From a virus (Duplodnaviria > Caudoviricetes), in the IMG/VR virus record IMGVR_UViG_3300017780_003104, positions 147,725 to 211,724 of that record: a stretch of 64,000 nucleotides of DNA; one strand, written 5' to 3'. This document shows, piece after piece, positions 2,950 through 48,508 of the stretch. Each line of letters begins with the position of its first letter. Position 1 is the first letter of the stretch. The translations under genes were made by a program, and so were the position numbers. Under the pieces are notes generated by a model, which had not been told where the DNA came from, did not search any database, and saw nothing but the letters and a program-made list of their open reading frames with translations.

Positions 2950-4605
2950 ATGTTTGAGAATAAAAGAAACGCAGAAGTCGTGACTGTTAAATCAGTTACT
3001 CGTAAGGAAGTTAACGCATTCCTAAACAATGCTAAAGCAGAATCATCCAAGACTCGTTCTGGTAACGGGGCATTGAAATTCAGTTCAAGTGGTGATTCGT
3101 TTACCGATCAGTTTACTAAGGCTGGTAAGTATAAGGAACCTCGTAAGTTCTCTCAAATCGCACAAGATTGTGAAATGTTGTGGGGTGAAGACCCTCTCAA
3201 GTGTGTGAAGTTCGCATTGTTTCTTCGTACTATTCCTCGCGTAGTTAATCTTCCTGATGGAAGTAAGACTGAACTTCCTCAAAAGGGAACCGAGTTGAAG
3301 CATGAAGCAATTATGCGTATGCTTTGGTTGAGTGATAAGTCTCCTCAAGCATTCTGGAATAACATTCTATTGTTTGTTTCTCTTGGATCTTGGCACGATG
3401 TTTTCACTATGCTTCAATATGATCTTAGCTACAACGGTTGGAATAATCGTAAGCTTGATTGGGATAAGTTTGGTGAGTTGATTCTTGCTGGTCTTAACAA
3501 TAAGAACACCTGTGATCTTATTAAGAAGTATCTTCCTCAAATCAAGTCTCGTAGTCAAGCTACGACTATTGATGCTCAATCCAACAATGCTATTGCTAAG
3601 TGGATTTGCTCTCTAGTCTTTGGTAACAAGGAAAGCGCATCTTCATACAAGGCTTATCGTAAGATCAAGACTAGTGGAACCGCGCATGATTGGCAAAAGC
3701 TTATCTCCCAAAAGAGAATGAGTGAATTGGATTTCAATAAAATTCATGGTCGTGCTCTATCAATTCTTGTTAAGAGTAAGTTCTTAAAGAACCAAGGACT
3801 TAGCGATAAGTATGCATCTTGGATTACTGCACCTACCACCAAGGAAGTTAAGTATACTGGATTCGTCCATGAACTCTTCGAAGGTAACTGGAAGAACGAT
3901 AAGAACAACGAAGCAACTATCAATAAGCAATTCGATACTCTTGTTCAAAAGGCAAGAACTAATGAAGTTACTGATTTGATTGTCGTTCGTGATACTTCTG
4001 GATCGATGTCTTCAATTTGTCCCGGCACTAAGTCTTCATGTCTTGATGTTGGAAAGGCAATCGCTCTATACTTTAGTGAATTCCTTCAAGGAACCTTTGC
4101 GGGTCATTGGATTGAATTCAACTCTGATGCTAAACTTCAAAAATGGGTTGGTCAAACTCCCGTTGATAAGTGGAAGAATGATAAGTCAAGCTTTTATGGT
4201 GGAACTAACTTTCAAAGTGTTGTTAATCTTCTCGCTAAGATGAAGAAAGAGGGAACACCTGAAAGTGATTTCCCTAGCGGTATCCTTTGCATTTCCGATG
4301 CAGAATTCAATCCTACTTCATTAGGTAAAACTAATGTTGAGACTGCGTTGACTACTCTTCGTAATGCTGGATTCTCCAAGGCTTATGTTGATAACTTTGT
4401 GATTATTCTTTGGAACCTTCAAAATAGTTATTATGGTAAAGGGTCTGGTGAAAAGTTTGAGACTGGTAAAGAAGTAAACAACGTTTACTATCTGGGTGGG
4501 TATAGTGCCTCCGCAGTTAGTTTCCTTTCAGCTAAGATCAAGACAACCTATGATCTAATCAACGAGTGTCTTAATCAGGAAGTTTTGAATATGGTTGAGA
4601 TTTAA
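2950..4605 (+). CDS. DUF2828-like TROVE/Ro60-related protein with C-terminal vWA domain
   Basis: N-terminal SGNGALKFSSSGD...WGEDPLKCVKFALFLR; vWA MIDAS VRDTSGSMS, GGTNF, CISDAEF, ILWNL; 551 aa, Ro60-like size. Confidence 0.75.
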   Translation: MFENKRNAEVVTVKSVTRKEVNAFLNNAKAESSKTRSGNGALKFSSSGDSFTDQFTKAGKYKEPRKFSQIAQDCEMLWGEDPLKCVKFALFLRTIPRVVNLPDGSKTELPQKGTELKHEAIMRMLWLSDKSPQAFWNNILLFVSLGSWHDVFTMLQYDLSYNGWNNRKLDWDKFGELILAGLNNKNTCDLIKKYLPQIKSRSQATTIDAQSNNAIAKWICSLVFGNKESASSYKAYRKIKTSGTAHDWQKLISQKRMSELDFNKIHGRALSILVKSKFLKNQGLSDKYASWITAPTTKEVKYTGFVHELFEGNWKNDKNNEATINKQFDTLVQKARTNEVTDLIVVRDTSGSMSSICPGTKSSCLDVGKAIALYFSEFLQGTFAGHWIEFNSDAKLQKWVGQTPVDKWKNDKSSFYGGTNFQSVVNLLAKMKKEGTPESDFPSGILCISDAEFNPTSLGKTNVETALTTLRNAGFSKAYVDNFVIILWNLQNSYYGKGSGEKFETGKEVNNVYYLGGYSASAVSFLSAKIKTTYDLINECLNQEVLNMVEI

Positions 4606-4750
4606 ATATCTTAAACTTTCTATCTAAAAAGAGAGTGGAGTCTTTGTAAATAAAGTTTCCGATGCGACCAACTTTATCTAGAATCAATAGACAAGCCGAC
4701 TGATTTGGAAAAATTTACAATGACAATAATAACAGCAAAATTAGAAGAGG

Positions 4751-4779
4751 TTGACAAATCTAAATTTCATGATTAAATA
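4751..4779 (+). promoter_or_regulatory. sigma70-like promoter upstream of RNA array
   Basis: TTGACA at 4751-4756 followed by AT-rich -10 region (TGATTAAATA). Confidence 0.5.
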
Positions 4780-5189
4780 AAGATCCGATGAGGTTTCGGT
4801 AGCTTCCTATGGCGAACAAATAAAACTACCAATAAGATTGCTTCAGCAAATATATTTTTATTTAAGGAAAAACAAAAGCAATCTGATAAGAGGACAAACT
4901 ACAAATACAAAAAATCAAACGTCCTCTGATAAGAATAAGTAACAGCAAAAACAATAAAAAATAAAAGCAAATATGCTAAACGATGAAAGTCGTCCGGGTA
5001 TCCTCACCATATTAGAGGTTGTAATATGGAGCTTAGAAGGGAGTCAATCTTAACTTATTCTGATAAAGTCATAAACTGCAAATAAAAATACTATTATGCA
5101 AAATAGCCTGTCGGTGGGTCCGAGGTAACTAAAACGGTTCGATTCCGTATCTATGACTTGCATAAAATCTCTTCAGCAAATAACGGAAC

Positions 5190-5272
5190 GTAAAACTCCC
5201 ATACGTGTGGTTCAAATCCCGCTGCTCACACTTTATTAAAAAGTGGGTATAGCCAAGTGGTAAGGCAGGAGT
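5190..5272 (+). ncRNA. circularly permuted tRNA-like module (YrlA-like), unit 5
   Basis: 3' half (actcc, T-arm TTCAAAT, tgctcac) precedes 5' half (gtgggta, D-arm gccaagtggtaaggc, ggagt). Confidence 0.85.
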
Positions 5273-5324
5273 CCAAAAACAATGAGATTTAATAGAAATA
5301 CTCCAGCAAATAACGCAACAAGGA

Positions 5325-5403
5325 ACCGTGTGTCGAACGTTCGATTCGTTCTCTCCCACCATATAAGTAAAATGGGAGGTAGCTCAGTTGGTAGAGCAAC
5401 GGT
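5325..5403 (+). ncRNA. circularly permuted tRNA-like module (Phe-like body), unit 6
   Basis: accgt-gtgtc-gaacg TTCGATT cgttc-tctccca-CCA, linker, then tgggagg-ta-gctcagttggtagagc-a-acggt. Confidence 0.88.
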
Positions 5404-5738
5404 AAGCAAAAAACATAGTATTTCGATAGGATTATATTCAGCAAATATACTACTCAACTGTTAATTGAAAAAAGTAAAAGTAATCCGATAAGAATTTCAG
5501 CAGCATAATATCGTAACTATAACGACTCTAAGGTAGCTTAGGTTTGGGAAACCAATACGGCGATGGTAGATAGGTAAACTAAGTTCTTTATAGAATATGT
5601 AAACCCTACGGGACGAACGATTGAATATTTATATATTCTTTAATGTGTCAGTGAAAGATGAAATTCTGATAAAATTAGCAACAGCAAACCAAACAAAAAT
5701 TTGACTTTTAATCAAACAATAAAATGCTAATTTGATAC

Positions 5739-6017
5739 ATGGAAATATTTTATATCATAACACTATCATTCATATTGAATGTATTATGGTCAATGATGGG
5801 TAGAGCTAGAAATAGAAACAACCTCATTTATCATGGTGTATTAGTATTTCTATCAAATCTATTATGGATTCTTTTTATGAAAAAGTTAATGACTTCCGAT
5901 ACGGAATCTTTAATATATGGAAGTATTGGTGGGACTATTGGTGCCATTTGTGGACAACCATTATCAATGTTTATTGAACGTGTGTTGAATGCTAAGAGTG
6001 ATGATCACATAGAATAA
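5739..6017 (+). CDS. small membrane protein
   Basis: 3 hydrophobic segments. Confidence 0.6.
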   Translation: MEIFYIITLSFILNVLWSMMGRARNRNNLIYHGVLVFLSNLLWILFMKKLMTSDTESLIYGSIGGTIGAICGQPLSMFIERVLNAKSDDHIE

Positions 6018-6018
6018 T

Positions 6019-6318
6019 ATGGAAGACTACTGGACAAAAAATAATCTAATCAAACCCGCATCAAGGATCGTATGTGCTGCTAATAGGCATAAAGAATCTG
6101 GTAGGATTGTCTGTGGTGCTCGTCATTGGGATAATGTAATGCGTTCACAAAAACTTGAATCAGAAACCTTTAATAATTGGGATCAAGGATTCATCAATCA
6201 ATTTGGTGAATGGTTGAATAGAGAAGAAGCGTGGGTAATTGCCGAAGAGCAGGGACAGATTAGAAATCTTTGTTACGACAAACAGACGGGTTACTTATTC
6301 AGCGAAAATTTATACTAA
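6019..6318 (+). CDS. conserved phage hypothetical protein
   Basis: IVCAA..IVCGARH..QGFINQFG..REEA..LFSENLY pattern common in large phages. Confidence 0.7.
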   Translation: MEDYWTKNNLIKPASRIVCAANRHKESGRIVCGARHWDNVMRSQKLESETFNNWDQGFINQFGEWLNREEAWVIAEEQGQIRNLCYDKQTGYLFSENLY

Positions 6319-6655
6319 GATGGAAGAATATTATGTATTTATAACACCCGACAATGTAATATGGGGGGTGGGACTTTCTAAGAAAGAAACAGTAGAGGAT
6401 GCTCTTAAAAATATTAATGATTATCCCGATTGGGATTCTAAGCCAAAGAGTGGTAAGATTGTGAGAGCTACATATGAACTAGCATGGGAAATCTGGGATA
6501 ATGGATTCAATGAAGATGTGTGGGACTTAGAGAAGAATGGTGAAATGTGGTTAGCTATATTAAAGGATAATAATCCAGATGATCATTATACTCAACTTAC
6601 TATAAAGGAAACAAAACTAAAATACAATTAATTAAAACCGAACTATAATAACAAT

Positions 6656-43762: not shown

Positions 43763-43849
43763 TGGCGGGTGGTGAAGGTAACGCTCCCTCTCCGCTCATC
43801 ACGGAGGCCAAGTTTTCAAGACTTGTTTGTGACTTTCACACCACCACCC
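43763..43849 (-). tRNA. tRNA-Ser(TGA), atypical D- and T-loops
   Basis: caagt-CTTGAAA-acttg; variable arm; T-loop AGCGTTA; tiny D-loop; G73+CCA. Confidence 0.8.
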
Positions 43850-47308: not shown

Positions 47309-47383
47309 TGGTGGGTTGGGGGAGATTCGAACTCCCGACTTAGTGATTAAAAGTCACTCATTCTACCACTGAATTACCAACCC
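47309..47383 (-). tRNA. tRNA-Lys(TTT)
   Basis: agtga-CTTTTAA-tcact; CCA. Confidence 0.93.
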
Positions 47384-48251: not shown

Positions 48252-48265
48252 TTAAATTAATCATG

Positions 48266-48355
48266 CACCACAGGTAGGGCTTGAACCTACATAACCCGAT
48301 AAAGGGTATACGTCGAATTAACAGTTCGATCTCTTGCCAATTAGAGTACCGTGGT
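48266..48355 (-). tRNA. tRNA-Asn(GTT) with long variable arm
   Basis: tcgaa-CTGTTAA-ttcga; ~22-nt variable arm. Confidence 0.85.
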
Positions 48356-48435
48356 TTTGTGCGCGTTTTATTTTTATTCTCTTTGGACTTATCACGCTTT
48401 TGTTATCCAAATCAGTTGGGTGCTACCCAACATCG

Positions 48436-48508
48436 TGCCTCGTATGGGAATTGCACCCATGTAAAAAGAGATTTAGAGTCTCTCGCCTAACTACTCGGCC
48501 AACGAAGC
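48436..48508 (-). tRNA. amber suppressor tRNA (CTA anticodon)
   Basis: agaga-CTCTAAA-tctct; full cloverleaf; T-loop TGCAATT. Confidence 0.85.

Follow-up and report, generated by a model that had tools for sequence, protein, structure and literature searches.

The window analysed here is a stretch of 64,000 nucleotides (nt) from a Caudoviricetes phage (IMG/VR record IMGVR_UViG_3300017780_003104, positions 147,725 to 211,724 of that record), whose genome has 211.7 kb, 34% GC and terminal repeats. Near the start of the window, a gene for a 551-residue protein of Ro60-like fold is followed by a segment without a credible open reading frame (ORF; 4606–5738), in which a unit parser resolved an array of nine abutting units sharing one grammar and beginning about 230 nt past the stop codon of the gene (Table 1). 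Seen from the outside, each unit is closed by a stem of 7–9 base pairs (bp), with the motif CAGCAAA lying 0–3 nt past its 5' strand; on the inside, a spacer, a variable cargo and an A-rich spacer lead to the 3' strand, and a linker of 4–5 nt, mostly GAUA, follows. The closing stems vary in sequence from unit to unit, and it is CAGCAAA, rather than the stem of the Y RNA model YrlA, which is conserved. In units 7 and 9 the cargo is a hairpin resembling the anticodon arm of tRNA-Asn(GUU) and tRNA-Lys(UUU), respectively, and these two units, together with the class to which they belong, are our subject. Elsewhere in the 211.7-kb genome we found no credible further units of this kind; the other motif matches lie in coding sequence and have no GAUA trailer.

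Table 1. Features of the window considered in this analysis, with positions counted from its first letter.
Feature	Positions	Strand	Source	Description
Ro60-like gene	2950–4605	+	AlphaFold2 and Foldseek	551 aa; TROVE-ring and vWA
Promoter-like site	4751–4779	+	sequence	TTGACA-N17-TAAATA, 5' of the array
Units 1–6	4835–5424	+	parser	
Unit 2	4889–4927	+	parser	decayed hairpin unit
Units 5 and 6	within 4835–5424	+	parser	permuted tRNA-elbow mimics
Unit 7	5429–5486	+	parser	58 nt; closing stem GGAUUAU/GUAAUCC, CAGCAAA, A-rich spacers, Asn-like hairpin
Asn(GUU)-like anticodon hairpin	5454–5468	+	sequence	TCAA 5454–5457, loop CTGTTAA 5458–5464, TTGA 5465–5468
Unit 8	5491–5667	+	parser	long cargo, between units 7 and 9
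Unit 9	5672–5733	+	parser	62 nt; closing stem AAAUUAGCA/UGCUAAUUU, CAGCAAA, A-rich spacers, Lys-like hairpin
Lys(UUU)-like anticodon hairpin	5700–5716	+	sequence	TTTGA 5700–5704, loop CTTTTAA 5705–5711, TCAAA 5712–5716
Phage tRNA-Lys(UUU)	47309–47383	-	ARAGORN	
Phage tRNA-Asn(GUU)	48265–48355	-	ARAGORN	

Both hairpins lie where an earlier note, made from the sequence alone, had placed them, and its description of the surroundings as A-rich and unstructured agrees with RNAfold, which returns only the hairpin and the closing stem in each of the two units. The unit 9 stem has 5 bp and that of unit 7 has 4 bp, followed by a C.A mismatch; the loops, CUUUUAA and CUGUUAA, share the 7 nt, the U33 and the purine 37 of an anticodon loop and are identical to those of the phage's own tRNA-Lys and tRNA-Asn. 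[quoted passage not shown] ARAGORN called no tRNA within 5429–5733, and A-rich spacers flank the hairpins where the acceptor, D and T arms of a cloverleaf would lie.

Taken on its own, the window offers modest evidence for these hairpins. Hairpins of at least 4 bp with a CU...AA loop arise in dinucleotide shuffles of the array at a mean of 0.16, and two or more are seen with a probability of 0.0075. The criterion is not fully specific, because the junction of units 8 and 9 also satisfies it: there, the last bases of unit 8 run through the GAUA linker into the first bases of unit 9 and give a third match, AATT-CTGATAA-AATT, at 5662–5676. More generally, the ends of the units are conserved as AGA...UCU, so that UCU-GAUA-A resembles an Ile(GAU) loop, which calls for caution in scans relying on the motif alone.

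It is the comparison across the family which argues, and argues strongly, that the hairpins exceed chance. Relatives of the 551-residue protein, at 38–95% identity, mark about 155 loci from freshwater, marine, sludge, soil and gut samples. On the coding strand, 86 of these loci hold 302 distinct units in chains, while the reverse strand yields 2; as many as 19 units were parsed in one 8.7-kb locus, a figure which includes false positives in coding regions, and as many as 11 in the arrays that were inspected. The cargo is 78% A+U and 47% A, and is short (≤50 nt) in 154 of the 302 units. A 7-nt loop caps the best hairpin of 49 of these short-cargo units, compared with 11.8 ± 3.3 in shuffles; hairpins with a CU...AA loop number 34, compared with 0.77 ± 0.84 (maximum 5 in 500 shuffles), and those with a CU..UAA loop number 29, compared with 0.17 ± 0.41. 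Stems in the family have 4 bp in 15 cases and 5 bp in 14, and are never longer. The same limit appears without selection for pairing, with 29 of 35 CU..UAA motifs flanked by exactly 4 or 5 pairs where 0.5 would be expected. When 18 Lys-, Thr- and Arg-like units are aligned, all five stem pairs are altered on both sides, with a covariation score of 0.70 (0.18 in shuffles and at most 0.11 with the pairing slid); the rows were picked for pairing, hence the paired percentage of this alignment is inflated. An anticodon-like unit is present in at least 31 of the 68 loci from which distinct units came. Loss of the 7-nt YU-NNN-AA loops among homologues was one of the findings which the earlier note named as telling against its proposal; homologous arrays do keep C-U-NNN-A-A loops of this length on covarying stems of 4–5 bp.

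Conservation within the loop is uneven. Across 44 hairpins whose 7-nt loops start with CU, position 36 is U in 77% (background 31%), and A occupies position 37 in 89% and position 38 in 84% (background 47%). At positions 34 and 35 the base may be U, G or C but is almost never A, despite the 47% A of the cargo. Anticodon identity, for which the earlier note had suggested that homologous arrays be compared, does swap between arrays: the triplets ending in U36 are UUU (10), GUU (6), UGU (6), CUU (2), UCU (2), CGU, GAU and GCU, all eight of which we take to be bacterial anticodons for ANN codons (Lys, Asn, Thr, Arg, Ile and Ser). Of the eight, six (UUU, GUU, UGU, UCU, GAU and GCU) are borne by the phage's own tRNAs, and a few further loops have A36 (UGA, GCA and GUA). 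The invariant part of this cargo class, C32-U33...U36-A37-A38, is the loop signature of ANN-decoding tRNAs. A phage of 34% GC would use ANN codons heavily, so that the corresponding tRNAs may be both a natural target and a natural model.

At the level of sequence, this pattern fits two published recognition logics. Firstly, the bacterial synthase of N6-threonylcarbamoyladenosine (t6A), TsaBD, strictly needs 36-UAA-38 and is neutral to positions 34–35 (PMC13276492); 36-UAA-38 is present in both loops. Secondly, the tRNAs cut by the PARIS nuclease AriB, namely those for Lys(UUU), Thr(UGU), Asn(GUU) and, to a weak degree, Thr(CGU), have in common U36AAU39 beside the cut at 40/41 (PMC12409363). 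Unit 9, reading U-A-A-U-C-A, matches this site together with C40/A41, and unit 7, reading U-A-A-U-U-G, matches it in part. A further nuclease, PrrC, mainly reads the anticodon stem-loop of tRNA-Lys (PMC1484252).

The two units differ in how far they can be followed. In the closest relatives (loci L155–L157, 95% protein identity) unit 7 is identical, and the unit 9 hairpin is unchanged on a closing stem with a compensatory change from C-G to U-A. The cargo of unit 7 is traceable to 68% protein identity (L158, L159, L076, L078 and L081), always with the loop CUGUUAA and on stems of UCAA, UUCAA or UUCA. Unit 9 itself was not found past the 95% relatives, and other arrays have Lys-like units with different stems, mostly UCAAA/UUUGA, AUGU/ACAU and similar. 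A GA...UC stem is seen in both of the real tRNA-Lys arms examined, those of E. coli and of the phage itself, and is mostly missing from these Lys-like units. The decayed unit 2 has CTACAAA in place of CAGCAAA and has lost about 17 nt of cargo; its intact form, in L155 (4330–4386) and L001 (5976–6032), is UCAA-ACGUUAA-UUGA, a GUU-type loop with A32 and C33.

Other elements were noted within and around the cargos. Many Lys- and Thr-like units of the family possess an outer 3-bp helix, AAC/GUU (for example L107:429–468 and L017:7102–7144; alignment A2, columns 9–11 with 34–36), which is paired in 74% of cells, lies 1 nt (5') and 3–4 nt (3') from the anticodon-like stem, and is absent from units 7 and 9. 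Hairpin loops containing GG mark another large class of short cargos, with 42 units compared with 10.7 ± 2.8 in shuffles; examples are AUUGGUA, UUUUGGU, UUGGUAA and UUAGGAU, at loci such as L011:5659, L094:4634, L025:6168 and L015:5449. These loops resemble the 7-nt D loops of the phage's own tRNAs (AGUGGUA and AAUGGAA) or GGA loops of the CsrA type. Short cargos with a T-loop-like hairpin were found three times, where 0.1 would be expected; in one, at L159:4475–4530 and also in L160, the cargo UUCG-UUCAAAU-CGAA is a free-standing look-alike of a T arm. The cargo of unit 8, by comparison, has 151 nt and is conserved in L155 and L001 (6691–6876) and partly in L076.

The protein encoded beside the array offers some indication of what the units may be bound to. 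Its only Pfam match is DUF7788, Pfam TROVE is not matched, and the PHROG family phrog_850, 'RNA-binding protein', is matched at 3e-30; more than 1700 homologues exist. An AlphaFold2 model (predicted local distance difference test, pLDDT, 79.8) was compared by Foldseek with the PDB, where the top 13 matches are all Ro60/TROVE proteins, aligned over the full length with E-values of 9e-8 to 2e-3 and including the Ro60 of a Thermus phage, of Xenopus and of human as well as Deinococcus Rsr. The link to Ro60 is visible only by fold search, because phmmer against PDB sequences gave noise (E about 0.8), and since template-modelling (TM) scores are moderate, at about 0.4–0.55, we call the protein Ro60-like rather than a Ro60 orthologue. 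The Rfam model of YrlA (RF02553) aligns with 5327–5401, in unit 6, at 33 bits (E 6e-5), below its gathering score of 69, and does not match units 7 and 9. Because of the fold of this neighbour, the YrlA match of unit 6 and the surrounding genes, we presume the array to encode Y-RNA-like partners of the Ro60-like protein, to which they are predicted to bind. A blastn search of 2950–6400 against the phage collection gave no match.

Among the surrounding genes, a Thg1-like gene lies at 709–1506, 5' of the Ro60-like gene, and is syntenic in L155, L158 and L159; the Thg1-like family acts in the repair of tRNA 5' ends. Three ORFs with an RNA-ligase domain (PF09414) occur in the genome (G000:C1 119173–121954 and 137431–137880), and no RtcB was found in it. 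The Thg1-like gene and the ligase ORFs together suggest a theme of tRNA repair. As to expression, the promoter-like site ahead of the array has counterparts in the same arrangement 5' of the arrays in L001 and L003 and may be the promoter of the array; a consensus promoter scan did not list it. RNA contigs from one metatranscriptome run (X19) cover only 4460–4682 and 5083–5345, leaving units 7–9 uncovered, and may reflect carry-over of DNA.

How might such units serve a phage? The anticodon arms of tRNAs are now recognised as a main target of bacterial immunity, attacked by PrrC, RloC, PARIS, Cas13a and retron and OLD-type nucleases. The reading we favour, tentatively and with a little less than even confidence, is that units 7 and 9 are handle RNAs which show look-alikes of anticodon loops in order to titrate loop-reading proteins, most plausibly anticodon-arm nucleases. 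In its structural part, namely that handle RNAs display such look-alikes, we regard it as highly probable. The array transcript would be cut into small Y-RNA-like units (58 and 62 nt for units 7 and 9), in which the closing stem, CAGCAAA and the GAUA linker would form a common handle, presumably bound by the upstream Ro60-like protein. At its tip, unit 7 would present a free copy of the Asn(GUU) anticodon arm and unit 9 one of the Lys(UUU) arm, and the resulting ribonucleoprotein (RNP) would offer loop look-alikes to loop-recognising proteins in competition with real tRNAs. Host nucleases of the PrrC or AriB type may be the best candidate partners, as they target exactly these tRNAs and their cleavage would cripple a phage of 34% GC. 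Besides the enrichment, covariation and conservation described above and the published recognition logics, the tRNA-elbow mimics of the same array, the Ro60-fold neighbour and a context fitting tRNA repair speak for this account.

Several observations weigh against it. Folded alone, the two hairpins are marginally stable (-0.3 and -0.5 kcal/mol; z near 0 relative to shuffles), and that of unit 7 has four pairs only; folding of single sequences neither supports nor excludes the hairpins. The orthologue of unit 7 in L002 carries a 9-nt loop, AUUGAUAAA, and the unit 2 family drifts through ACGUUAA, AUGUUAA, AUGUCAA and UUGUUAU, so that C32 and U33 are not strict and, on these sequences, not every member of that family is a strict copy of an anticodon loop. 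In the relatives, moreover, the aligned units are like tRNA in the loop only and not in the stem. Recognition of the arm may also be insufficient: TsaBD additionally reads the D stem (PMC13276492), which units 7 and 9 lack, and for AriB the site in the arm does not suffice for cleavage, contacts with the D loop being of importance (PMC12409363). As the units have no D arm, the D-loop U16-U17 and distal contacts of AriB are missing from them.

A broader version extends the decoy to the array as a whole, and as a whole we consider it somewhat unlikely. Here, throughout this large phage family, the Ro60-like ring and its handle RNAs would constitute a modular RNP displaying a 'dissected tRNA' as a multi-target decoy against tRNA-cleaving immune nucleases. 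The tips would comprise arms with anticodons for ANN codons, D-arm-like hairpins with GG loops, T-arm-like hairpins and whole elbows; the targets would be PARIS/AriB-like and PrrC/RloC-like nucleases and the collateral activity of Cas13, with cargo swapped unit by unit as defences change.

The mimicry of the loop may also be real and be aimed at a different partner. An enzyme that modifies or charges tRNAs (TsaBD/TsaC, or LysRS, AsnRS or ThrRS) could be tethered or titrated by the RNP, or the unit RNA could itself be modified; this we judge unlikely. A known case of such capture is the operator in the E. coli thrS mRNA, where an isolated hairpin imitates the anticodon arm and is bound by the synthetase ThrRS. 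The combination of free positions 34–35, fixed U36-A37-A38 and a pyrimidine at 32 reproduces the logic of TsaBD exactly (PMC13276492), and tRNA-modifying enzymes are known to act on Y RNAs of the YrlA type (PMC4201824). However, the D-stem contacts used by TsaBD have no counterpart in a bare hairpin, titration of an essential modification enzyme holds no obvious gain for a phage, and neither t6A nor synthetase genes stand beside the array.

Also unlikely, in our estimation, is that the tips are generic pyrimidine-rich loops, by-products of A/U-rich cargo, which bind an S1/KH module such as that of PNPase or merely space the handles. The 78% A+U of the cargo, the weakness of the hairpins and the accidental passing of the linker-derived CUGAUAA hairpin are what would be expected of such loops, as are the short GG-loop cargos without likeness to an anticodon (42 against 10.7 expected). 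Y RNAs are, besides, known tethers to PNPase, as in the Ro60-Y RNA-PNPase machine of Deinococcus (PMC4201824). Composition is nonetheless a poor account of the numbers, for shuffles which preserve it yield 0.2–0.8 such hairpins against the 29–34 observed. Nor would it be expected to leave A nearly absent at positions 34–35 on a 47% A background, to raise C32 from a background of 13.5% to 51% of loops, or to end stems at 4–5 bp. It would likewise leave to coincidence that the U36 triplets are all bacterial anticodons, six of them found on the phage's own tRNAs.

The explanation offered by the earlier note was more specific, namely that unit 9 copies the tRNA-Lys arm of the host as bait for nucleases while the phage's own tRNA-Lys has diverged to escape them. 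Its view of the hairpins as real look-alikes of anticodon arms, carried as unit cargo, is borne out; the division into a host-like bait and a resistant copy is not, and we consider it very unlikely. The 15 of 17 bases shared between unit 9 and lysT speak for a copied arm. The phage tRNA-Lys does have a different anticodon stem, AGTGA/TCACT, of which the two outer pairs differ from unit 9, and escape variants of tRNA-Lys, tRNA-Thr and tRNA-Asn are carried by phage T5 (PMC12409363). Yet the phage arm, AGUGA-CUUUUAA-UCACU, shares with unit 9 the loop and the three loop-proximal pairs, a common 13-mer, UGACUUUUAAUCA, which includes U39, C40 and A41; it is through changes at these positions that the tRNA-Lys of T5 resists AriB (PMC12409363). 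The 15-mer, for its part, occurs in tRNA-Lys(UUU) genes across Bacteroidota, Firmicutes, Enterobacterales, Elusimicrobiota and Acidobacteriota (carriers include Saprospiraceae, Clostridium, Citrobacter, Elusimicrobiota and Bryobacterales; 4 of 10 matches checked fall outside tRNA genes) and is therefore uninformative on the host; it is a generic bacterial tRNA-Lys arm. The dissimilar Lys-like stems of the relatives and the insufficiency of the arm site for AriB, both noted above, tell against bait as well. By the sequence evidence the mimicry concerns the loop, and the phage tRNA-Lys shows no sequence feature of an escape variant.

That units 5–7 and 9 are parts of a split or trans-spliced tRNA was rejected, as each elbow unit has a handle stem of its own to close it and there are no complementary joining sequences.

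Comparison with known systems places the array closest to the YrlA Y RNAs which accompany bacterial and phage Ro60/Rsr proteins (RF02553; PMC4201824). These are small non-coding RNAs beside a gene of Ro60 type, with a terminal stem as the handle for a protein and a tip which mimics tRNA (PMC4201824), and the array units, encoded beside a Ro60-like gene, are predicted to share this design. YrlA, however, lacks an anticodon loop and mimics the acceptor together with the T and D arms, whereas units 7 and 9 mimic the anticodon arm only, are half the size, have CAGCAAA and the GAUA linker as their handle and stand in an array whose protein matches DUF7788 rather than TROVE. A stem-loop of the Deinococcus radiodurans Y RNA Yrn1 can also be drawn as a 5-bp anticodon-like arm (PMC4201824), but its loop has 6 nt and no reported anticodon-loop signature, unlike the canonical 7-nt C-U-NNN-A-A loops which recur in arrays across many phages. 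The tRNAs of T5 are likewise phage-encoded RNAs with the three anticodons dominant in the array class (UUU, GUU and UGU); they are complete, functional tRNAs replacing cleaved host tRNAs, whereas the array units cannot be charged or decode. The thrS operator is a cis element in an mRNA leader, in contrast to the arrayed units, which would be free small RNAs on a handle of Ro60 type. Sponge RNAs of the CsrB/RsmZ type titrate one protein with many hairpins, each bearing a short loop motif, but do so as one RNA with identical GGA loops, whereas the array consists of separate handle-bounded units with different cargos.

Parts of this picture have been drawn before: Y RNAs resembling tRNA are known beside Ro60 genes, phages included (PMC4201824), and the TROVE proteins of jumbo phages have been mentioned in connection with RNA repair (PMC7824862). 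Our literature search found nothing on DUF2828/DUF7788 or on anticodon stem-loop decoys in phages, and no description of the CAGCAAA/GAUA handle, of long unit arrays, of isolated anticodon-arm cargos or of the DUF7788 Ro60-like family. A widespread class of tRNA-part mimics beside a Ro60-like protein is apparently undescribed. To our knowledge, phages answer attacks on the anticodon arm with replacement tRNAs and RNA repair; an anticodon-loop decoy on a handle of Ro60 type would, if real, be a third strategy. It would also provide a concrete role for phage, and perhaps bacterial, Ro60/Y RNA particles, which have lacked one since the description of tRNA-like Y RNAs in 2014. The 'dissected tRNA' RNP, should it prove correct, would represent a novel class of anti-defence based on RNA, and phage Ro60/Y-type RNPs would gain their first assigned function. 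The family also offers dozens of naturally occurring loop variants, in which the rule that 34–35 are free and 36-UAA-38 is fixed makes the partner testable, and the units are short, modular and easily synthesised.

A number of minor observations concern the array and the phage tRNAs. Array length differs among close relatives, L155–L157 having no unit 6, and contigs of one DNA run (X3) skip 4923–5077 and 5399–5511, the latter of which would delete unit 7; the sides of these joints span 21–22 nt, and the evidence is weak. The CUGUU of the unit 7 loop could kiss the AACAG of some handles, over 5 nt only and with no sign of conservation. The phage tRNA-Asn, at 91 nt, has a long variable arm, unusual for Asn, and adjoins a tRNA with the amber-reading anticodon CUA (48435–48508, minus strand), which ARAGORN labels Pyl. 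On the same strand, 43765–43849 holds a tRNA-like sequence uncalled by ARAGORN, with the acceptor GGGUGGUG...CACCACCC followed by GCCA, the anticodon arm CAAGU-CUUGAAA-ACUUG (UGA), a long extra arm and no canonical T loop.

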